Source: Isurus oxyrinchus (taxonomy: Eukaryota). From it: a DNA stretch of 64,000 nt. Location: NCBI GenBank assembly GCA_026770705.1, contig JANJGN010000034.1:6696001-6760000 (forward strand), given 5' to 3'. This document shows, one piece after another, positions 20,561 to 60,279 of this stretch; within the stretch, counting starts at the first letter, position 1; every line of letters begins with the position of its first letter. Under the pieces are notes generated by a model. It had not been told where the DNA came from, made no database searches, and was given only the letters and a program-made list of their open reading frames with translations. A program made the translations under genes and the position numbers.

Positions 20561-21428
20561 CATGTATTATGTATCTCTCAGTATATAAGGAAATAAATGG
20601 ATAAATAGATCCATAAATAAGTAAATGAATAATGAATATACCATGTCATGATGGCTGCCCTTTCTGATTGTAGGACTATTCTGTCGTTGAATTAGTTGCC
20701 ATATTTTATAACTTATAAAATTAATAACGGGCCAAATGTGTGCAGCTTATTGATATGTTGTTTGGAAATCACCAAGTTTGCAAAATGCAACTTTGGGCAT
20801 CTTCCTTCCCTTACTAAGGAAATAGGTTGGTCGGCGGTTCAATGGTAGGATGCATCCAAAAGTCAGTAATTTACTTTCCCTGCATTCCCTGTAACATAAA
20901 ATCACTCAGGATATAAGCAAAGTATCATCTCTGCTATTATCTGGTTCACATCAGTTCTAAACCAAGTGAAAAAAAAAGAATGAAATGAAAGCAACGTGGA
21001 AAATTCAGCAACGAGTCCATGGTCAGCAATGTCCCTGGAGTAAAATGGCCGGTAGAGATAGTGTCAAGAAAGATAAAAAAAACATTATCATTGTTGTTAG
21101 ATGAGGAGTAAATAATGCACCAAATATCTGGCAATTAATTCCAGGACCTTCTTCAAAATTATGCCAATTGATTTTTTTGAAGTTTTCCTGCAGTGTTTGC
21201 GATGCCTGGTTCACCACGTCATGCAAAAGGAAGAGCCCAGGACAGAAGTGCACTTCAACTGCATTAATATTGTCACAGGGGTTATTGAGTCAGGCCTTTA
21301 TAGTGAGTTGCAAACACAGTGACTTCCGCTTCATAAGTGGAACAGGAACAACACAGCTTCGTATAAAACAAAAACAGAATTACCTGGAAAAACTCAGCAG
21401 GTCTGGCAGCATCGGCGGAGAAGAAAAG

Positions 21429-21467
21429 AGTTGACGTTTCGAGTCCTCATGACCCTTCGACAGAACT
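21429..21467 (-). ncRNA. Minimal type I hammerhead ribozyme fold (copy A)
   Basis: Minus strand: AGUU CUGUCGA A GGGUC AUGAG GACUC GAA ACGU C^ AACU. Stem I AGUU/AACU, stem II GGGUC/GACUC, palindromic stem III ACGU. Predicted cut between 21433 and 21432. Confidence 0.8.
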
Positions 21468-21487
21468 TGATTTCGAGTCCGAAATCA

Positions 21488-21526
21488 AGTTCTGTCGAAG
21501 GGTCATCAGGACTCGAAACGTCAATT
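21488..21526 (+). ncRNA. Minimal type I hammerhead ribozyme fold (copy B)
   Basis: AGUU CUGUCGA A GGGUC AUCAG GACUC GAA ACGU C^ AAUU, with a G.U wobble in stem I. Predicted cut after 21522. Confidence 0.8.
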
Positions 21527-21661
21527 CTTTTCTTCTCCGCCGATGCTGCCAGACCTGCTGAGTTTTTCCAGGTAATTCTGTTTTTGTTTTGGATTTCCAG
21601 CATCCGCAGTTTTCTTTGTTTTTATCTCTGTGTTTAATTGACTGCCACTGCTCTTCAAGAA

Positions 21662-22225
21662 ATGCCTACCTCCTTGAAGAAGTTCTGTTCCTCTCTGCGA
21701 CAAGATTTCCATATCTCTCTGTTGCCTTGTTCACCTTCTTTGCTTTCCATTTCCCTCCTAGTGTTTGACAAGGTGTTTACTAAAACCCGCTTTCACAGCC
21801 ATATCGCCTTTCTCAGTGACTGCCTCCGTCTCTGACATACCCCACGTGGATTTCAACTGAAATTCCACCCCTCATCATTCGAACCCACCCAGGATTACCG
21901 GTATCTCTGGGACATAAAACGTTTCTCAGACTGCTGTTCCCGTCACATTCTGAAATCCACACTCAGTGCCATGCGCCGCCATATGAACACACTCGACCTC
22001 TCCCTCCAGCAGCACCGCCGTACCCTTTTTTAAAGCTGCGCATGGCCCCAGTTTCATTTTATCCTTCGGCTCATCCGACGCCTCAACAAGAAACTTTTTC
22101 TCTTTCTCTCAACTGCTAAGGAACGCAAGCTCCAACAACTCATAGACACCAACACCCATCTAGGACCCTCCACCCCAGCCTGTCCCTCCGTCCCCACCCC
22201 ATCTTCCAATCCCAGCCCCAGCCGT
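21662..22225 (+). pseudogene. N-terminal part of the Penelope-like ORF, with two in-frame stops, truncated before the RT
   Basis: One frame from ATG 21662: MPTSLKKFC..HIAFLSDCLRL*HTPRGFQL..RTLF*SCAW..KERKLQQL..PSPSR, with stops at 21833 and 22031. The H..FL..C......P.G pattern resembles PLE N-terminal domains, and the segment lies directly after a pLTR. Confidence 0.7.
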
Positions 22226-22255
22226 GAAGAAAAAAATAAGAGGGACTCGAAATCA

Positions 22256-22294
22256 AGTTCTGTCGAAGGGTCATGAGGACTCGAAACGTCAATT
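22256..22294 (+). ncRNA. Minimal type I hammerhead ribozyme fold (copy C)
   Basis: AGUU CUGUCGA A GGGUC AUGAG GACUC GAA ACGU C^ AAUU. Predicted cut after 22290. Confidence 0.8.
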
Positions 22295-22764
22295 CTTTTC
22301 TTCTCCGCCGATGCTGCCAGACCTGATGAGTTTTTCCAGGTAATTCTGTTTTTGTTTTGGATTTCGAGCATCCGCAGTTTTCTTTGTTTTTAACAGCTTC
22401 GTATAAGTTTGGTGACAGATAGAAAAGAGAACAACTGAAGTTAGCTTTAGGGAATATATTCTACCTTGATATCACTGCATCATATTATCCATGCAAGTTG
22501 AATGTCATATATTATTGCTTCCGCCTGCAGTCATTCTAAGCAGTGGTGACATTTTCAGGTGCACATGTATATATGGACACCACAACAATTTAGAAGCCAA
22601 TACAGCGTGATGAAAGTGGACCTGTATTTGAATGAAAAGTAGGCTTTTTTTCCAGCAATTTGATCGGCTGGCCAACTAAGTCCAGTAATGAGCATTATTG
22701 TCTTATCGAACCCCAAAAGGCCATCTGTCACTTATTCCATGTCAGTAATCCACAGAGTAATGAC

Positions 22765-23088
22765 CCTTGTTCTGCTAATCACACATTCTCATTTCTTTCC
22801 CTTATGCCACTACCAGCAAATGCTTTAGCTCTTACCACTAGAGTTAACTCTCCCTTTGTCTTTTGTCCATGGCTTATTTCAAAATCTCTCCTTAGCCCCC
22901 ACGTATCGCTGATAATGTCTCCTGCTTCGACTGTACCACCCTCCGAAACAGTATGAACGTAATCAGATTTCTACCTCTATTTAGTGCTGCAGTAGAGTCA
23001 TACGGATTTGAAACGTTAACTCGGTTTCTCTCTCCACAGGTGTGGTCAGACCAGTTGAGTTTTTGCAGCACATTATGATTTTATTTCA
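22765..23088 (+). mobile_element. Older Penelope subfamily 3' UTR/pLTR fragment with decayed HHR (22983-23021)
   Basis: agtg-ctgcagta-gagtc-atacg-gattt-gaa-acgt-t-aact, then tctctccacaggtgtggtcagaccagttgagtttttgcagca. The upstream part resembles 57190-57410. Confidence 0.7.
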
Positions 23089-28232: not shown

Positions 28233-29414
28233 AATTAGCAAATTAACATTGAACAAATGGTGAATAAATTAAAAAAAAACAAACTTCAGTCGTTTTTCAC
28301 TTCTCATAACTCAACAATCGCAACACACACTAATTTATGTAATAGTAGCGCAGCTACTTCAAACATTAAAACCTTATCAGCCTGTTTTTTTTCTCTTTGA
28401 AAGAAAGAGCTTGAGGCTGACCTTATTGGGACATTTCAAAAGCTTGAACAGTTATATTAAAGGAAGATTCGTGATTATATTCCCAGCTTTGTAAGAAATC
28501 AGAGCTAGGTTTCATGCATGTGTGATTTCCATTAATATAACCCACAAGGTGTCTGGGGAGCTGAGGAAGATATTAACTTTGCAGCGTAATAATAAATACA
28601 TGCAAATTGCCTGGAATTATTTAAAGCTATTATAGATAAGCATCTGAGAAAGAAATTACGAGATATTTCTGTTGCAAACAATAGACGTGGAATGATCACC
28701 GGAGATTCGAGTAAAACATTAATATGTTAATGAAAAATATGGGCACAAGGGCTTTTTAACACTTTGCTTAGCCAACGTGATTCCAAATATGTGTGAAAAA
28801 TATCCGACTGAATTCTCTGCAACTACTGTTCGGTGATCACCTGTGCATGTCTCCAGGTCCTCGCAACTCAACCGCCTACAGCCTTAAATGTCGTTAAATG
28901 TGAATTGGTTAAGAAAAATGATTATATTTTTGCAATGTTATTTTGTCATTGCTTTCAATGAGCTCAGCAAACTGAATAGAAATTTACTGTCATTGTTGCG
29001 ACGGCAATGGTTCAGGAAATATGACAATCCTGGTAAAACGACTTCTGGGTTAATTAAGTATGATAAATGTTGCATGTAGTGACAGGACACGCAATTCCGA
29101 AAATGTAGACTGGTCACTGCCACATGACTAATGCTTCAGTATCATGTTTGTATACAAGAACTGAAATGTAAAATAAAATAATTGTGATTCTTTAAAGCCC
29201 TAAGCATATTACATATGATAGACCGAACAATTCTATATTAGTAAGGCGCAGACTTTCAATTTGCAGTTCCCCTTGCAGGCCTGTTTTTTTCTGGCAAATC
29301 ACACGAAATGTGATTTGTATTGCAAATGATGAGATTTTTTTTTTTTCGGAGACATCAATGTTAGAGACAATTCAAATCAAAATTTTAAAGTGAAGCAGAC
29401 ACCAAGTTTTTAAT

Positions 29415-29511
29415 ACAAAAACAGAATTACCTGGAAAAACTCAGCAGGTCTGGCAGCATCGGCGGAGAAGAAAAGAGTTGACGTTTCGAGTCCTCATGAC
29501 CCTTCAACAGA
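29415..29511 (-). mobile_element. 97-bp Penelope pLTR mini-insertion with a 14-bp TSD
   Basis: TSD accaagtttttaat at 29401-29414 and 29512-29525. The insert matches pLTR copy A except for one G>A change (tcga>tcaa). Confidence 0.93.
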
Positions 29512-29514
29512 ACC
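29476..29514 (-). ncRNA. Minimal type I hammerhead ribozyme fold (copy D)
   Basis: Minus strand: GGUU CUGUUGA A GGGUC AUGAG GACUC GAA ACGU C^ AACU. The 5' strand of stem I overlaps the TSD. Confidence 0.7.
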
Positions 29515-32500
29515 AAGTTTTTAATGTTTTAGGCAGAGTTAAACAGGGCGAGTGAAGCCTGCATATTCACAACTAATCATTCAATATCTCCTTCCCTAAC
29601 TCTGCCTTACTTTATTAAATCGCATGAGTCAAAACTGTCAGTACCACTTTTGAAAGAAAAATGGTGGCTCTAGACAGCTGTGAACACAGACCAGTTCAAG
29701 TGCTCTACACCACCACGTTTGCTGCGCATGAACATTTTAAGCACTACATCAGTTCAACATTTTAAAGACGTTTCTTGACTTTTCGTGAACTACCCTACCT
29801 TACACTTAAGGGAAGATGACGTGTTTCTGCTTGCTCTTGCTTGACAGAAAATGAAAAACTGAAGCAAGAATTGATAAAGAAAGGTGAAGAATGAAAATGA
29901 TGAGGATGGCTAACTTCATGACTTGTGCCATTGAATTTTCCTTTCAGCAAAAGAGTGGCACTGGTTAAAATATGTAGATTGGAAATGGTTTGTAATGGGC
30001 AATGCTGCCTTTTTTCGCAAACTGAAGGTTAGCTAATTCATGAAATCAATGCAAATCAATTTTAGATGCATCATATTGAATAGAAATGACTGTAACGGCT
30101 GAAAATGATTATTTTGACCTACCATAAATCAACCACTTTTTTGAATGCTTTGCACTCGCTTTGTCACAAACCATGCTATGGATACCACCAGACTCAAGAA
30201 TGTTCCCCTGTCTGGAAAGCCTCGTGCACTAGCCTTATGATTGTGTAAACCAATACCTCTGCTGCACAAATCCTAACTGGCCTCACATTTTCATCATTCT
30301 GATCGCCTCTCCAAATATGTGAAATGTGACCCAATGCTACAAACCTACAGGATATAAGAATCCCTAAAATCTGGCATTTATATATATATTCCGTTGCCTA
30401 GGCCATCTGCTTTGCAATTATTTCTCTTAACATCCCCGTGGCCTCCACTCTTGCTCTTCCTTGATTCCCTTAAATTTACCTCTGTGCACGAGATTCTTGT
30501 TAACAGACATAGCAATATGTTCTTCACTGCAAATATTTATTTGATACAACTCCTGTGAAATGTACTTGAGTGCGAATTTTGCTTAAAGTCCCAATAAAGT
30601 CGCAGAAAAAAATCAAGTTATTTTATCTGTAGTTAAGTATGAAATAGCACGATTTAAAATCTTCAAAATGTTTTCACATATCCAGGCGGTGATTTGAAAG
30701 ACCTGTTCCCAGGTAATGGATCAATTAATGGATGATTATAATTTAGCAAAAAAAAGACCATCGCCATTATTGCTTAGCTACAATCATAGAATAGTAAAAT
30801 GATGCGGAACTTAAGATGGGCAATCTGCCCATGAGCAATGCAACTGCCTTTAAGTAGACCTGTTCGATTCAAATATATTAACTGTTTCTTTATTTTATCA
30901 AATAACAGTGTTTTACATTTTTCGTAATTTCGCAATAGCCCTATGAACATTGCAGTTCAATGTCCTGCTATCACATAATTACATTGTGCATTTTACATTA
31001 CACTGTTTAAATAACGTGAACTTTCTCTGGAAAGACTCTCTTTTTACTTACATGACCAGCCGCAATGGTGACCTCGGACACCCCATGCTGAACAGCCTTT
31101 TAATCTAATTGCTCTCAGGTTAACTGTTTATTTTGTCCAGTCACTGTATCTAACTCAAATCGTTCAATTACCATTCTATATGCATTTTGTTATGGCCCGT
31201 TAGTGCCCTTCTAATACTTGATCACGTTGGCAAATTCCTTGTGGCCTGCAACATTTGAAATTTTAACTTGATGGTAGAAATTATTTCCGCCCTCGGGGAG
31301 ACTTCAGCGAGAATGCATAATGTTAATTTAAAAAACTAGCCTTTTCAAAATTGAAATTAGGAAACACATTCTGTAGGCAGGCTGGTCGGATTTTAAACTC
31401 TCTTCGGTAAATCACAATGGATGGTGAACAAGTCATCATCATTTTTACTTTCTGAATGTGTTAGGAGACTTGGGGGAAAGGTCGTGTACTTATAAGTAGT
31501 CAAGTCTTCACTTTGTTGAAGGGTCGTAGGCAGAATTTTTTTTTTCTTGAGTTCACATCCTACTATAAATGCATGTCTCCGGGTCATTGATTAATGGCAA
31601 TGGAGAAGTGTCCCCAATACAGTCTCCATTAAAACATGACACTGAGTTTGAATTAATCAAAAAGAGTTTCTGTGTATTTTTCAGCGTTCGCTCAAAATAT
31701 CGTCCTAAATATAGCCCAGGTACAGATGGGAATTTTCACATTGATGCACAGCAACAATAAACCATTAACATTATGCCTATCTGGCGTTTTGGAACAATGG
31801 CAAGTAAAGAAACGTCATTGTTGGCCCACCTGCATATGATTTTGGTGGTCAAATATTCTGAATGTTAGACACCACACTTTAAAAAAAGCCAACGTTTCAG
31901 AGAAGATGAAGAGGACATTTCCAAGAATGATGCAAGTGGTGAATGAATACAGTTATGCGGATAGAAAATCTATCTAGTGGAAATGGGTGTGTAGCTAATC
32001 TACATGTATTTAAGAAAATTGACAAAATAAGCATAGGTAAGCTGAGCAAAACTTGTTTTATGCATCAGGTTTACGTGGAACATATGATGGGAATAATGAA
32101 CGAAGAATATTCAATAATAACAATGTGTACTTGTAGTAAGTAATTGAAGGATAGTATAGTTCTGAAGCAATGGGATATACAGGGGTGAGTTGCACTGATT
32201 GTATTGTTCTTCTAACGAGTAGGTACTGCGATGATGAGTATAATGAATTACAATTGTGTTGCCTATTGACATATTCTGATGTGAGAAAGTCCATGTTGGC
32301 ATTTATACTCGAAGCCATCCATTGCAACCTGATTTTTTTCGAATGTGGAAGTGTTTGACATGTGAACTTAATTCGACTGACTTCCACCCTATAAACATAT
32401 TATTCGAGAAAAAAAATCTGCTGATGAGTGGTATTTAAAATTTGGAAGCAATTCCAAATATTGACTAGTCTATGTGAACAAAAGTACTAAAAAAAGAATA

Positions 32501-33834
32501 ACATCAAAAATCCCTTCAAAAGTTAGAACCTATGCCCCTTTGATCCAGTGATCATTTCCTCTGAGGGGTGACTACAATGTAGAGTTTCAATGAAAATTGG
32601 TATGTTCTGTTCAGGACAAAGAACTCCACATTCTAAAATATTTTCTAATGACTTACTCACATTTCCTGAGTAGGTCATAGCATACTATCTCAGGGTTTGC
32701 AAGTTTTTTTTTGTTGTTATAGTGAGAACAACTGGAGAACACCCAACCTATGTGATGATTAGAACTTGATCTTTACCTGATAATTCGCCCCATCTCCTCT
32801 TATGTGCTCTAATTATTGATATGTTTCATGATCCCTCATCTATTGCTGCTTCACTGTGCATCCTCATACGCAGATGTGCAAATTCCTTTCAAACCAAAGT
32901 TGAGATTATTCTGTTGTTTTTATCGTCCATTATATATTTTATTTAATAAGTAGTACACAACAGCACATCAAAACTAAGCATCCATAAGTGACTCCGGGCC
33001 CTAAGCCACAATAGCACTGCATTCTGCCACAAGCTTCGATCTCATGGCCGGGAATATCCTACACCCTGCCATTAGCATCAAACCAGGCGACCAACCCTGC
33101 TTAAATGAGCAACTTAGGAGGGATTGTCTGGAGATTCTCCAAACATGCCTAAAGTCAAACTCCAACTTGGCGAAGATATAATTCATTACTGCATGCATAC
33201 TAAACTGTGGTTTTAATTTGTAAGTCCGTTAACAGGCCGTTTAATAGTGGCTTTCATTTTTTCTTGTTTTGCATCTTCCTGAAGGCAGATTATGATGTTA
33301 ATGTGATGGTATTTATCTGAAAAAGAAGCAATTATGTTTTTCATGCTTTATGTAGGGCTATGCCGTTTTGCAATTCACTGTGTGCCCCCTCTGGAAATAA
33401 GCTCTCCCAATTTGATTATTCAGAACTTCTTTTAATTTTGAAATCATCTGTTAAATCAGCTATTTTTCTCTCTGCTGCTGGGGGAGCTGTTCCACTTATC
33501 TAGTCTGTCCATAATACTCATGGTCCTTTTTCTGTCTCTGCCTTTTTCAGCTTTGCGTATGTTTTCGATTGAATCCCACTTTATATGTTAGCCATTCTGA
33601 ATGTGTTTCAAAATCCTTCGTCAGTTGCAGAAATTCAGTTTATTCTTTGATAATAGGAATACTTTCTGCCGGTTGGTGAGTGTAGCACTAGGAAATATAA
33701 GTATGTTAGTAGAATAGATTTTAGAATTGTGAGAGTGTGCGAGGAAAACAGCGTGATGATTTAGTATAAGAGAAAAAGCGAGAAAGTGTGAGAGGAACGG
33801 AATAGTAATTTAAAGGGTGAGCTTGTGAGAGAAG

Positions 33835-34030
33835 CAGTGTGGCCATTAACAGGGAGAGAGTGAGAAAGAAACAGCAAGTTAATTTAATGTGAGAGTGTGA
33901 GAGAAACACGGGGGCCATTTACATGGTGAGAGTGTGAGAGAGGCAGAGTGGCCATTTACAGGGAGAGAGTCTGAGAGGAGCGGGCATTTAACAGGGAGAG
34001 AGTGATAGAAGATAGAGGCCATTAGAGAGC
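33835..34030 (+). repeat. Degenerate tandem repeats in the CR1 5' UTR (ggccatttacagggagagagtgtgagag-like units)
   Basis: ggccattaacagggagagagtgaga, ggccatttacatggtgagagtgtgaga, ggccatttacagggagagagtctgaga and gggcatttaacagggagagagtga recur. Confidence 0.75.
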
Positions 34031-42659: not shown

Positions 42660-42793
42660 ATTACTATTATTACTATTATTATTATTGTTATTATATTCTT
42701 CTGCTTCTCTCCTTCTTCTTCTAGTTCTTCTTCGTCTTCTACTTCTTCTAGTTCTTCTTCGTCTTCTACTTCTTCTAGTTCTTCTTCGTCTTC

Positions 42794-42825
<32 letters not shown>

Positions 42826-42838
42826 CCTCTTCCTCCTC
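42660..42838. repeat. Compound (ATT)n + 3x27-bp minisatellite + (TCT)n
   Basis: Three exact copies of tcttctagttcttcttcgtcttctact at 42717-42797, with an ATT-rich run upstream and a pure TCT run downstream. Confidence 0.95.
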
Positions 42839-43250: not shown

Positions 43251-43357
43251 GGGCTCTGAAGAAGTGTCATGGAAACTCGGAGCGTTAACTCTGTTTCTGT
43301 CTCCGTAGATGCTGTGAGGCCTGCTAAGTTTTTTCCAGCATTACCTCTTTTGTTGCA
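43251..43357 (+). mobile_element. Older Penelope pLTR fragment with decayed HHR (43252-43290) and canonical CUGAAGA core
   Basis: ggct-ctgaagaa-gtgtc-atgga-aactc-gga-gcgt-t-aact, then ctccgtagatgctgtgaggcctgctaagttttttccagca. Confidence 0.7.
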
Positions 43358-49474: not shown

Positions 49475-49790
49475 TAAGCAAAAAACTGTGGATGCTGGAA
49501 ATCCAAAACAAAAATAAAAATAACTTGAAAAACTCAATAGCTCTGACAGCATTTGCGAAGGGGAACACATTTAACATTTCGAGTCTGTACGACCGTTCAA
49601 CTGAACTAAGGAAAAATAGAAAAGAACTGAAATATACGCTTGTTTAAGGGGAGAGATGGGACAGGTAGAGCTGTTTAGAGGGCCAGTGATAGGTGGAGAT
49701 AGCCAAAAGATGTCATAGACAAAAGGACAGAGGTTTTGAAGGTGCTGATATTATCTAAGGAATGAGCTAATAGGCGACATCAAGGGTAGA
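49475..49790 (-). mobile_element. Intermediate-age Penelope 3' UTR plus pLTR with decayed HHR (49569-49607)
   Basis: The reverse complement aligns by eye with 57200-57527 (attagc..ttagataat..cttttgtc..gacatctttt..ctatcactg..ttaaac.agc.tatatttca). HHR remnant: agtt-cagttgaa-cggtc-gtaca-gactc-gaa-atgt-t-aaat. Confidence 0.8.
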
Positions 49791-55060: not shown

Positions 55061-55369
55061 GTTATCGGAATGCCATAATTCTGAAGAAAGTAACCCCTCC
55101 TAGGGCTGCTAATGAACCTGACTGTTTGGCCACAGTTGCACTCCAACAGCCCTATTGGGTGTGGCGTTCAATGTTGGTAATACAGGTAATCCTCATATCA
55201 CATTTGTCCAGATATGGGAACAAAGATAGGTCACAGGTTTCTTGGCAGTGAAAGGAGTGGATGGGTTGGCGTTAGTGTTGTGATGATGTTTGTGGGTGCC
55301 ACTTTGCAAAGGGAAATTTTGCAGGTAAACCCAACTAGGGAAGACATTTAGAGAACACTGGATTATGTT

Positions 55370-57034
55370 TCCAGGACTGTCACTGACCTCATCTCCTCTG
55401 GGGATCTCCCTCCCACAGCTTCCAACCTGATAGTCGCCCAACCTCGGACGGCCCGCTTCTATCTCCTACCTAAAATCCACAAACAGAACTGCCCCGGTAG
55501 ACCGATCGTCTCAGCTTGCTCCTGCCCCACAGAACTCATTTCTCGTTATCTTGACTCCCTTCTCTCTCCCCTTGTCCAGTCCCTTCCCACCTACATCCGT
55601 GATTCCTCTGACACCTTACGTCACATCAACAATTTCCAGTTCCCTGGCTCCAACCGCTTCCTCTTCACCATGGACGTCCAATCCCTCTACACCTCCATCC
55701 CCCACCAGGATGGTCTGAGGGCCCTTAGCTTCTTCCTCGAACAGAGGCCAGAACAATCCCCATCCACCACTACTCTCCTCCGTCTGGCTGAACTTGTTCT
55801 CACGTTGAACAATTTCTCCTTCAACTCCTCTCACTTTCTCCAAATAAAAGGTGTGGCTATGGGTACCCGCATGGGCCCCAGCTATGCCTGTCTCTTTATG
55901 GGATATGTGGAACATTCCTTGTTGCAGTCCTACCCCGGCCCCCTTCCACAACTTTTTCTCCGGTACATCGATGATTACTTCGGTGCCGCTTCATGCTCTC
56001 GTCGGGACTTGGAAAAATTTATTAATTTTGCTTCCAATCTCCACCCCTCCATCATTTTCACGTGGTCCATCTCTGACACTTCCCTTCCCTTCCTTGACCT
56101 CTCTGTCTCAATCTCTGGTGATAGACTGTCCACTAATATCCATTACAAACCCACTGACTCCCACAGCTACCTCGACTACAGCTCCTCACACCCCGCTTCC
56201 TGTAAGGACTCCATCCCATTCTCCCAGTTCCTTCGCCTTCGTCGCATCTGTTCCGATGATGCTACCTTCAAAAACGGTTCCTCTGACATGTCCTCCTTCT
56301 TCCTTAACCGAGGTTTTCCACCCACGGTCGTTGACAGGGCCCTCAACCGTGTCCGGCCATTCTCCCGCGCATCCGCCCTCACGCCTTCTCCTCCCTCCCA
56401 GAAACATGATAGGGTCCCCCTTGTCCTCACTTATCACCCCACCAGCCTCCGCATTCAAAGGATCATCCTCCGCCATTTCCGCCAACTCCAGCATGATGCC
56501 ACCACCAAACACATCTTCCCTTCACCCCCCTTATCGGCATTCCGTAGGGATCGCTCCCTCCGGGACACCCTGGTCCACTCCTCCATCACCCCCTACTCCT
56601 CAACCCCCTCCTATGGCACCACCCCATGCCCACGCAAAAGATGTAACACCTGCCCATTCACTTCCTCTCTCCTCACCGTCCAAGGGCCCAAATACTCCTT
56701 TCAAGTGAAGCAGCATTTCACTTGCATTTCCCCCAACTTAGTCTACTGCATTCGTTGCTCCCAATGTGGTCTCCTCTACATTGGAGAGACCAAACGTAAA
56801 CTGGGCGACCGCTTTGCAGAACACCTGCGGTCTGTCCGCAAGAATGACCCAAACCTCCCTGTCGCTTGCCATTTTAACACTCCACCCTGCTCTCTTGCCC
56901 ACATGTCTGTCCTTGGCTTACTGCATTGTTCCAGTGAAGCCCAACGCAAACTGGAGGAACAACACCTCATCTTCTGACTAGGCACCTTACAGCCTTCCGG
57001 TCTGAATATTGAATTCAATAACTTTAGGTCGTGA
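55370..57034 (+). pseudogene. PLE reverse transcriptase / GIY-YIG endonuclease ORF, 5'-truncated, with one premature stop at 56975
   Basis: The frame is open from 55370: FYLLPKIHK..GRPIVS, FTMDVQSLYTSIP, QIKGVAMGTRMGP, RYIDD, LPFLD; Cys linker CPRKRCNTC; LVYCIRCSQCGLLYIGETKR..RFAEH. After the TGA at 56975 the frame continues LGTLQPSGLNIEFNNFRS* to 57034. Confidence 0.95.
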
Positions 57035-57427
57035 GCTCCCTCCCCCATCCCCACCCCCTTTCTGTTTCCCCCTTTTTTCCCCCTTTTTTTTCCCTATAAA
57101 TTTTACAGATTTTTCTTTTCCCACTTATTTTTAAATATTTTAAAATCTTTTATGCTCCCCCCACCCCCACTAGAGCTGTACTTTGAGTGTCCTACCATCC
57201 ATTCTTAATTAGCACATTCGTTTAGATAATGTCACCAACTTTAACTTTAACACCTATGTGTTCTTTTGTCCCATTGTCACTGACATCTTTTGATGATCTG
57301 CTTCTATCACTGCTTGTTTGTCTACACAAGCACCTCTGTCTCTCTCTCTCTCTCCGCCCCCCCCCCCCCCCCAACCTACACACCTTAAACCAGCTTATAT
57401 TTCAACTCTTTCCTGGACTCGAAATCA

Positions 57428-57466
57428 AGTTCTGTCGAAGGGTCATGAAGACTCGAAATGTCAACT
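57428..57466 (+). ncRNA. Minimal type I hammerhead ribozyme fold (copy E)
   Basis: AGUU CUGUCGA A GGGUC AUGAA GACUC GAA AUGU C^ AACU. The stem III palindrome has changed ACGU>AUGU (CpG transition). Predicted cut after 57462. Confidence 0.75.
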
Positions 57467-60279
57467 CTTTTCTTCTCCGCCGATGCTGCCAGACCTGCTG
57501 AGTTTTTCCAGGTAATTCTGTTTTTGTACTGGATTATGAAAGATGGCCTGTGATGGATGAGACCGGGAACATTACAGCATGATATCCGAGCAGTTGTACC
57601 TAATGAGCTTTCCCTCAACCTCGTCCCTGACCTCCTGCTGCTGGCTTGACATTCAGAACCTGGAGCAAAGCAGTGCATAAATCGTCAGCAAATAAGCAGT
57701 GGTTGTGTTTCCGGCACAATGAGTCGACTTCACTCGGAAAATATTAGAGAGTCCTTGGGCTGGTGAGAACGAGGTTCAAATTTCTGCTATGGATTTTACA
57801 GGATTCCCCGCTGCATTCCAGCGAAATGAGGTGGGAGGTTTTGAGACATTGTGTCAAAACGATGAAGCAGCATAACATTCCTTAAGGCGAAACAGAATGG
57901 AACACATCGACATAATCAGGCATAAATGTTGCCATAATAACAGAGCTCAGAACGGATCTTCGTTCAAAGGTACAGAAAAATAAATAACTAGGGTGCAGAA
58001 CAAGACGAAAATGTTTCAAAAAACCCTGGCGAGAGCAATTTTGGACATCAATTACTATTCAGGCCAACTGCCACATCATTAATAAAGAAATAATTGCAGT
58101 TTGAAAGAAAGGGAATGTAACAATTCTGGAACGATTTGAACTTCACATGAACTGAACACATCAATTTGCCAAAAAAATACATCTGAAATGTAATGACTAA
58201 TACATTGTACACCCACTTAGAGATGAAGATGTCTTAGAATTAGTATTCCTCAATGACGCATTTTAATTTGCTAACTCAGAGGAGAAGACCTTGGCAAACG
58301 GTTGTCAAAACAGATAATGTATATTATATAAAAGCTGTTCTTAATTTTGCATTTTTAGTTTATTCTTTGAGTTATGGTGCTCTCTGCTTTGTCACACATT
58401 GGTCATGCTTTGTTTTTTTAAATTTTGTTTTGTTTCATGTAGTTTTCAACTCTCTCTAGGTTCCTTTATTTCTTTCCATCTTCCTTTGATGCCCCAAAGT
58501 CATTTTGTTCCAAACGAGAAGCCGAATTTCTGATTGTACTGAAATATTGCTAGTAAGGTTTTTGATTTTAGCAGCTGTCTAATGGACAGTAAACATTTTT
58601 TTTCAAGTCATTCGCGTCTCCTTTAAAAACTTAGATGCAGTTGTCTGAGTCATTTTTGCGAGAATTATTCATTTTGTCCAATCCAAGTCATACCCTGGCG
58701 GGAAAAACTGCATGTTCAATCGGCAAATTTAGAACCAAATAAACAATTAGCAGGACTGGAAACTAAGCCACATTTCAAATAGTTGTCTGCCAGGGAATGG
58801 CTGAATGTTTTCCATAAAAACTGTGCAATAATGCATATTGATTGAGCATAATCCCTGAAGAGATATTCATATCAAGGGCCAATATGAGTGACTGTGCTGT
58901 CCCCACCTTTCTATGGATAGAAATTCACTTACCATCTTCAGTGGAAAAAAATATATTGATACTATATCACCAAACAATAAGCTTCTACCCTTTCCTGCAT
59001 GCTCCCTCTCTCAGCAGACATGGGCGAAACGAGCATAATGAGCTCGGATGTAATTTCTTGGATGGATATCATTTGATATTACAGATGCTAATCTTCTTTT
59101 CACAATTGGAACAGTCAGCTTCTACATGTCCGATTTATGACACAAACAACTGTCTGCCCTTTGGAACCAAACTTGTCTCAAAACGTCTCTACTAAGTACA
59201 TCCACTGTACCAATGCCAGCTTCCTGACAACAGTCATATTGTTTTTCACTATAAAACTTTTTACCTCTCCAAGATCTCTGGTAATTTCGAAATAGGTGCC
59301 ATGTGTCGAAGTGCTCATGACCCAAGTCATAAGGACATTAAATTACTGTGACTTCACTTAAGATATGACATGTTTGCTTTTGTAGGTATGAAATCATTCT
59401 TTAAAGGACAGTAGATTTTTTGAATCGTTCCATCAGAATCATTTCCCTAAGGAAATCAACATTTCCTGAATCTTTAATCCATGTATACCTCAGATCCTGA
59501 CCGTCTATCCATGAAACAACACAATCTATCAATACATTTTCTTTTAAAATTAGTAACTTACATTCTGTGAGCCACCAGCCCAATTGATGAGCATTTCCAA
59601 GGGTATTCCTTAATATGTCATAGTCGGTTTAGTGCTTTTCTGAACAGGTCTCAGGTTTTCCATATTACGGCACTCTGCATTTGCATGGTATAAATTCTCT
59701 GTAGCGTTTAAGGTTGGTGGCAGTTTCTCAAAGGCCTCAAAATACATCTATCATCCTTCCTAAATAAATGCAGGTACAAATTCAATAAAGATCATGAAAC
59801 CAAAACCATCAGGGCTTTCATACATTTAATCTGCACCGGTCACCGCCAGTGTACGTTCCAATCATCAGAATGCTTCGCACACAAATTACTTGTTATCTCT
59901 TCACTCCTTTCTTACCGCATCCTTTCACTTGGGAGTACATCTTCTCTTCTCTCGTACTCTTGCATTTCTTTCTGTTCCATGTTGAATGCCTCCACTTAGA
60001 GTTGTCTCGTTCAGTGCACTTCTTTACCTGGATAATAAATGGGGGAAATTGCATCTTCAGTTATTCACAGTAACGTGGGCCCTGCACAAATGGGCTCTCA
60101 TCGCACTGCCAAGGCCATCTCCGAGAATCCCGTGGCACGCACAGCCTACAGCCACCCCACAATACTACCCCCACCTCCACACCTAGCTCCATCACTTTGC
60201 ATTATGTCAGAATAGGTGCGAATTAGTTATTATTAGCCTGTAAGGCTGACAAGTAGTTATGTGACACAAGGTTCTCTGC

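Follow-up and report, generated by a model that had tools for sequence, protein, structure and literature searches.

The window analysed here, a 64-kb stretch of the Isurus oxyrinchus genome at positions 6,696,001-6,760,000 of contig JANJGN010000034.1, contains hammerhead-like motifs in which U replaces the conserved A at position 6 of the catalytic core CUGANGA, raising the question of how a mobile element came to spread with this base exchanged and what became of the ribozyme when it did. Eight copies of the motif, five young and three old, are found in the window:

21488..21526, plus strand: minimal type I hammerhead-like motif, copy 1; core CUGUCGA at 21492-21498, U6 at 21495
21429..21467, minus strand: hammerhead-like motif in the inverted 5′ arm of a composite insertion; core CUGUCGA at 21463-21457
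22256..22294, plus strand: hammerhead-like motif within the composite insertion, in its 3′ pLTR; CUGUCGA core at 22260-22266
57428..57466, plus strand: hammerhead-like motif in the 3′ pLTR of a truncated element; CUGUCGA core at 57432-57438, with T in place of C in helix III
29415..29513, minus strand: solo short copy whose sequence starts with the 5′ strand of helix I; CUGUUGA core at 29510-29504
49569..49607, minus strand: older U6 remnant; core CAGUUGA at 49603-49597, U4 decayed, GUU site
43252..43290, plus strand: older A6 copy; core CUGAAGA at 43256-43262, GAAA decayed to GGAG
22983..23021, plus strand: older decayed copy, absent from the first-pass annotation of this DNA; core CUGCAGU at 22987-22993

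Copy 1 has a helix I of AGTT/AATT, an extra A after the core, a 5-bp helix II, GAAA, a palindromic CG, and a GUC site with the scissile bond at 21522/21523. U6 occurs in all five young copies and in the remnant at 49569-49607, a member of an older U6 subfamily, as the first-pass annotation had claimed. Its further statement that every young copy reads CUGUCGA holds for four of the five (21492, 21463, 22260 and 57432), the copy at 29510 on the minus strand being CUGUUGA, and the canonical core it described in the older copy at 43256 does read CTGAAGA, though in a motif whose GAAA is now GGAG. An Rfam scan of the 64-kb window returned 0 matches at the gathering threshold.

The five young copies and the remnant at 49569-49607 derive from the pLTR of a Penelope-like element. 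The five young copies sit in three insertions, each with a TSD of 11-14 bp, namely the solo copy listed above (14-bp TSD at 29401-29414 / 29512-29525) and the following two:

21367..22392, no strand assigned: composite Penelope-like insertion; 14-bp TSD at 21353-21366 / 22393-22406
55368..57527, plus strand: 5′-truncated element with RT + GIY-YIG coding part, 3′ UTR and pLTR; 11-bp TSD at 55357-55367 / 57528-57538

The composite insertion consists, in order, of an inverted short pLTR, a pLTR with tail, a 5′ piece of the ORF (ATG at 21662, end near 22226, matched by eye to the long locus L021) and a second pLTR with tail, its inverted arms lying at 21365-21590. The truncated element has an open frame at 55352-56977 (541 codons, with an early stop) and ends in a U6 motif. 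No convincing TSD of at least 8 bases was found for the three old copies, which showed 6-7 bp matches only, and none at all for the remnant at 49569-49607. Tandem repeats of other kinds also occur in the window, including a 37-base minisatellite of 5.3 copies (33785-33977) and a CTT-rich 9/27-base array (42696-42832).

Longer versions of the element were located through same-strand motif matches about 3.3 kb apart in the 4.98-Gb genome. Open frames of 865, 926 and 925 codons stand beside U6 motifs in tandem elements at two of the five long loci (L021 and L023); in the 3.35-kb tandem of L021, the 926-codon frame encodes RT + GIY-YIG and lies between U6 motifs. Pfam matches to this protein include RVT_1 at 32.9 bits, above the cut-off, and GIY-YIG at 19.9 bits, below its cut-off of 22.6; a GIY-YIG-type motif is visible in the ORF and several homologues carry PF01541. 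The single ORF with RT followed by GIY-YIG is that of an EN+ Penelope-like element with a C-terminal GIY-YIG, and further traits of Penelope-like elements are the pLTRs made up by partial tandem arrays, the inverted copies on the 5′ side, an optional tail of 30-40 bases and the TSDs. The RT-EN linker, CPRKRCNTC in P0001, has the form CX4CxxC, which falls within the zinc-finger-like CX2-5CxxC linker between RT and EN that defines Neptune/Nematis (PMC8557442), and by this linker motif the element is of Neptune/Nematis type. Among 120 listed of 1,425 homologues, the closest named ones by identity are two bamboo shark proteins (69% and 65%), and a metagenome search with the endonuclease part gave two weak loci. 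Nine identical truncated copies lie about 70-120 kb apart at G000:C21:86939793-87702868, an arrangement that points to a large segmental repeat in tandem.

The exact 36-base young motif has 55,149 matches in the genome and its reversed control has 0, so the motif is not a chance occurrence. One relaxed pattern applied genome-wide counted 94,352 copies with U6, 4,399 with A6 and 2,152 with C6 (100,903 in total, covering A, C and T at position 6 and not G6); because exact patterns miss part of the old, decayed copies, the true A6 share is higher than counted. The older GUU site is present in 7,570 of the U6 matches. Within an otherwise unchanged young 35-base context, position 6 departs from T in 1,658 copies, and among the first 100 of these listed, read by eye, 76 are CUGCUGA and 8 are A6. 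The proposition that the young consensus has A6 after all, raised in the first-pass annotation as a test of its claim, was checked against these copies and does not hold, A accounting for just 8 of those first 100. A diagnostic upstream flank unites the CUGCUGA copies, which therefore form a subfamily:

L041:1497-1570, minus strand (similar loci L026-L055): C6U7 subfamily, core CUGCUGA; about 1,250 copies, extrapolated from 76 of 100 listed

Since the C6 subfamily was amplified too, position 6 has changed more than once. In the young context, estimated at about 68,000 copies, G5 changes number 871 (~1.3%) and A13 changes 208 (~0.3%), scattered across letters and backgrounds as post-insertion mutation would give, and no amplified G5 or A13 sub-lineage was seen in this genome-wide check of those two core positions.

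The order in which the letters at position 6 arose was taken from the coding part of the element. From 213 motif copies (fetched loci, which were the first matches listed and mostly from contig C1, together with the window), 45 that each had a long enough stretch of the ORF 3′ part attached to its motif were placed in a tree built on the ORF 3′ parts, the motif itself being unused. The eight A6 copies are basal and all 37 non-A6 copies lie beyond them, in the order A6, old U6U7, mixed U6U7/C6U7 (a well-supported branch) and U6C7; the split between A6 and non-A6 has 70% ultrafast bootstrap in an earlier tree of 34 copies and the root hangs on one A6A7 copy. Copy ages agree with this order without needing a root: non-CpG divergence from the own consensus is 4.8% for A6 (n=8), 3.7% for old U6 (14), 2.1% for the middle group (10) and 1.0% for U6C7 (10), using 42 of the 45 copies after 3 were dropped as duplicates or discordant. 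The ORF tree and the ladder of copy ages together mean that U6 was inherited and predates the latest burst, preceding it by several subfamilies. With 55,149 exact copies and U6 running through several subfamilies, U6 is a family trait and not decay, and the recent transposition proposed in the same annotation is borne out by the TSDs, the 1.0% divergence of the youngest group and the open ORFs. Between the consensus ORFs of old U6 and the youngest group, pS is 0.144 and pN 0.033, a sign of purifying selection after A6U, so the lineage remained an autonomous, selected element once the base had changed.

What the change does to the ribozyme can be approached through published position-6 variants. 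A6C is a natural variant in bacteriophage Bcep176, with a rate below 0.1 per minute (PMC3088659), and lowers the rate in Mg2+ by orders of magnitude with Mn2+ preferred (PMC7151607); such A6C ribozymes retain low activity that is rescued by Mn2+ (PMC3088659; PMC7151607). In a pairwise mutant scan, mutants of the CUGA region were low in activity except for a C3/G8 swap (PMC9901934). No published case of a natural U6 core was found, and the catalogue of PLE hammerhead variants of Lunse, Weinberg and Breaker 2017 (cited in PMC6765202), outside this comparison, could list one. A6U does not occur in PMC11014351 or PMC12192606, and a retrozyme preprint of 2026 (10.64898/2026.07.22.740005) samples one chondrichthyan and does not contain the word 'core'. 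A literature match for CUGUCGA was set aside as a chance string in unrelated sequence. The role of hammerheads in Penelope-like elements has been called unclear (PMC8557442, PMC4209133) and their absence no hindrance to spread, in work that used cuganga as a search string (PMC8557442). In the PAc element, hammerhead mutants left in vitro insertion unaffected and uncut RNA was the main substrate (PMC11167929).

The reading that best accounts for the locus, and which we consider rather probable, is that of an attenuated putative ribozyme on an element that copies uncut RNA. A6 would have been replaced by U in the source lineage of the pLTR min-HHR motif of a Neptune/Nematis-type element, and, as changes to A6 in the literature strongly lower cleavage, U6 likely leaves a ribozyme that is much slower or silent. 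Such a ribozyme would be tolerated because the element likely copies uncut RNA.

Evidence on the template comes from the ends of the copies. Among young copies with a 3′ anchor, 89,475 retain GAA upstream and 1,029 lack all three letters; of the first 100 of the latter, assigned by eye, 17 break exactly at the scissile bond, no more than at adjacent registers (two others take 15 and 13). After a correction assuming random flanks, breaks at the scissile bond amount to ~0.45% of young copies. The 5′ ends were sampled from 60 loci (74 copies) drawn from the first read-through matches, with upstream sequence ignored in the choice. Twenty-five of the 74 start 1-8 bases 5′ of C3 (4.2% per base), most often at -4 or -5 (14 copies), and 28 continue into the 3′ UTR. 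Several inverted pairs contribute both of their arms to the 25, and one of the 25 may have a misassigned flank; at least 8 are solo copies set in unrelated sequence. Ends near helix I are found in 25/74 young and 5/29 older copies (P 0.15), for which no difference is claimed. An A6-enriched older set has 78 broken against 3,087 read-through copies, with about 11 of the 78 at the exact scissile bond; 14 of the 23 copies in this set that reach C3 have A6. As these copies also read through, read-through can neither separate A6 from U6 nor measure an effect of U6, and the ends show uncut RNA as the apparent template without showing U6 as the cause. At the other end, copies extend 65-70 bases past the scissile bond in 24/48 cases and at least 91 bases (to ~100) in 17/48, the latter a lower bound given ungapped extension. 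In the window, GATGCTG / CAGCATC (21545-21605) can close a long hairpin around the first 3′ end position, a candidate RT-binding or initiation structure.

A TATA-like box lies upstream of these 5′ ends:

57396..57402, plus strand: TATATTT, a TATA-like box lying 32 bases before the A that opens helix I

The box is found 28-32 bases upstream of the helix I A in most copies of every subfamily. In the window it precedes by about 30 bases the Inr-like AGTT with which helix I opens (57396-57431), the box being kept while the spacer diverged, and the two are likely a putative core promoter and start site of the element. The box and the clustered 5′ ends lead us to infer that transcripts begin at the helix I A. 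On that view the genome bears a sharp imprint of a true RNA end and none of the cleavage site. Two other explanations of features in this region were discarded. GGACUCGAAAUC, present upstream in the youngest subfamily, was considered as a second cleavage site generating the -5 ends and rejected because helix I would be 2 bp and because the motif is absent in older subfamilies, whose 5′ ends share the zone (5/29). An ATG in the conserved downstream box was considered as a first exon spliced to the ORF and rejected on inspection for a frame mismatch.

The attenuation reading can then be assembled as a sequence of probable steps. Transcription would begin at the helix I A, about 30 bases downstream of the TATA-like box, and reverse transcription would begin in the tail 3′ of the motif and have to pass through the motif; a template cut there would give only a 65-100 base stub because reverse transcription starts 3′ of it. 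A slower core would then be harmless or mildly favoured, and successive source elements would have carried U6 to high copy number. U6 may have been either selected or only hitchhiking. That the family kept spreading with U6 suggests that cutting was not needed for new copies.

The strongest rival holds that the U6 core is a working natural variant whose cleavage is restored by the protein of the element or by cellular ions, trimming a capped 39-base leader or processing tandem transcripts, with selection holding the rest of the core; we consider this unlikely, and it draws on the conservation of the remaining motif. Stems pair in 96.1% of 153 cells, against 18-52% for slid controls, with a helix I of 4 bp, inside the 2-6 bp of the PLE min-HHR, and a helix II of 5 bp with G10.1-C11.1; no two-sided (compensatory) pair changes occur in the 17-row alignment. 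GAAA-CG-U-C/U is present in every subfamily consensus, giving the GAAA, A15.1-U16.1, palindromic 15.2-16.2 and H17 of the minimal type, and the family departs from the PLE minimal type I hammerhead at the CUGANGA core, whose A6 is confined to the older A6 subfamilies. Along the ladder, 0 of 10 other core letters changed and the helices and palindromic CG stayed fixed; 1 of 31 structural positions changed (to a G-U wobble, with pairing kept) against 4 of 7 free positions, namely N7, N17 and two in loop II (Fisher P 0.002, for classes of free and structural positions chosen after the data were seen). The cleavage site shifted from GUU to GUC, and the changes fell where hammerheads tolerate them. 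A fixed core with tolerated changes would fit retained catalysis, weakly, given that at pS 0.144 the probability of 0 changes in 10 is 0.21 and that of at most 1 in 31 is 0.05.

This working-variant explanation gains from the ten core letters, helices and palindrome standing unchanged over that distance while N6, N7, N17 and loop II moved, from the lack of any amplified G5 or A13 sub-lineage seen, from the Anolis PAc hammerhead, which cleaves only with its protein (PMC11167929), and from the residual, Mn2+-rescued activity of A6C ribozymes (PMC3088659, PMC7151607). However, cut templates leave no genomic footprint, the conservation of the ten core letters alone is not significant, with two other core positions tested genome-wide, and the core or helix II lies buried in the folds predicted for the young groups. 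In predictions on short fragments (intact stems in 105 of the 123 copies with genuine flank), the hammerhead-competent monomer fold carries a median penalty over the ensemble of 2.7-4.9 kcal/mol in the A6 and old U6 groups and of 5.0-6.1 kcal/mol in the three youngest. An in silico N6 swap shifts this penalty by ~1 kcal/mol or less in most groups, so U6 itself would not be the cause of misfolding; pairing of an upstream segment with G5-U6-C7 is predicted for the youngest group. At 57415-57428 and 22243-22256 in the window, the spacer before helix I in the youngest subfamily has turned into GGACTCGAAATC, which nearly repeats the helix II 3′ strand together with GAAA and would, by prediction, pair with the core strand. 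A U6-specific inactive rod fold (UGUU with AACG) was also considered and rejected, A6 versions having similarly sized competing folds. In the four A6 and U6 copies tested as dimers the hammerhead was not the lowest-energy cofold in either, so dimer energy does not discriminate between them.

A related and equally tentative proposal is that the U6 core is a functional variant tuned down and rescued by the protein of the element, the tuning having been selected because a cut template aborts reverse transcription. If it is true, one genome would hold a dated series of A6, U6 and C6 able to settle the purpose of the Penelope hammerhead, and whole families of about 10^5 motifs would escape searches requiring CUGANGA.

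An improbable explanation, and one that would make the ribozyme itself beside the point, is that catalysis was irrelevant before A6U and the stretch was kept for an overlapping role, with U6 a product of neutral drift or an adjustment to that role. The role may be that of core promoter DNA just past the start site, a splice acceptor or an RNA structure bound by RT. The TATA-like box that precedes helix I by 28-32 bases in every subfamily and the clustering of 5′ ends at helix I would suit a promoter, as would the TATA and Inr-like motifs described in rotifer Penelope pLTRs (PMC3846280); the D. virilis Penelope has been assigned a TATA-less internal promoter (PMC2377424). An intron end of the D. 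virilis Penelope maps to helix I (PMC4209133) and would suit a splice acceptor. Older shark subfamilies (e.g. L075:1533-1570, minus strand) have a pyrimidine tract and TTAG directly before the core, resembling a 3′ splice site at helix I as in that element. A 33-base downstream box outside the hammerhead is conserved as strongly as the motif, so catalysis is not the sole possible cause of the kept architecture, and the A6-enriched copies read through too. Against an overlapping role, the A6 subfamilies agree with the published min-HHR consensus in every feature, and the pattern of free and fixed positions obeys hammerhead rules and, on inspection, not those of a known promoter element. That U6 is post-insertion decay, a local accident or an assembly error, as the old window copies decayed at several core letters might suggest, is refuted by the 55,149 exact copies of the 36-base motif and by the presence of U6 beside open ORFs in tandem arrays and through several subfamilies, and carries next to no credence.

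Both readings offered in the first-pass annotation, an attenuated variant and a relic with another role, thus still stand, with the evidence favouring strong attenuation and an uncut template. One lineage swapped a conserved core base and then expanded most, and its ancestors and descendants coexist, so that the A6/U6 series supplies constructs, already made by nature, with which to ask whether transposition gains from cleavage, suffers from it or is indifferent to it. If the U6 core cleaves, the natural hammerhead consensus is widened; if not, the family plainly documents the switching-off of a ribozyme while its element stayed active. As U6 dominates, searches requiring CUGANGA would miss most motifs of this Penelope-like family.

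One of the closest known counterparts is the min-HHR of metazoan Penelope-like elements (PMC4209133), which shares with the shark motif a place in the pLTR of an RT + GIY-YIG element, a short helix I, the extra base after A9, G10.1-C11.1, GAAA, the palindromic 15.2-16.2, a UH site and a U-rich 5′ flank, and in which short solo motifs likewise make up most copies. The comparison with published HHR alignments that the annotation had called for sets the two apart at position 6: all 56 representatives in Fig. S3 of that work have A6 and none has U6, in a set that includes no cartilaginous fish and a search pattern that required A6, whereas here U6 dominates and a C6 subfamily exists. Copy counts there are in the thousands, against about 10^5 here. 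The Bcep176 A6C hammerhead (PMC3088659, PMC7151607) shares a natural change at position 6, and the core of the C6 subfamily, CUGCUGA, is that of the tested A6C mutant; however, Bcep176 carries a single phage motif with measured low activity, whereas U6 and C6 are known here from sequence, in a dimer-type minimal motif amplified by retrotransposition.

The PAc Poseidon element of Anolis carolinensis (PMC11167929) is similar in its pLTR hammerhead, in its two 3′ ends about 35 bases apart (the tail) and in apparently using uncut RNA as the template. It differs in that its protein-assisted cleavage has been demonstrated and its ORF starts inside the motif, whereas the first ATG of the shark element lies ~135 bases past the scissile bond and the shark element has the CX4CxxC linker of Neptune/Nematis and a non-canonical core. 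Naiad and Chlamys Penelope-like elements (PMC8557442) have also spread to high copy number without a canonical hammerhead core; in those clades the domains are permuted and the motif is absent, whereas in the shark the whole architecture was kept and the A6 ancestor and its U6 descendants are found in one genome.
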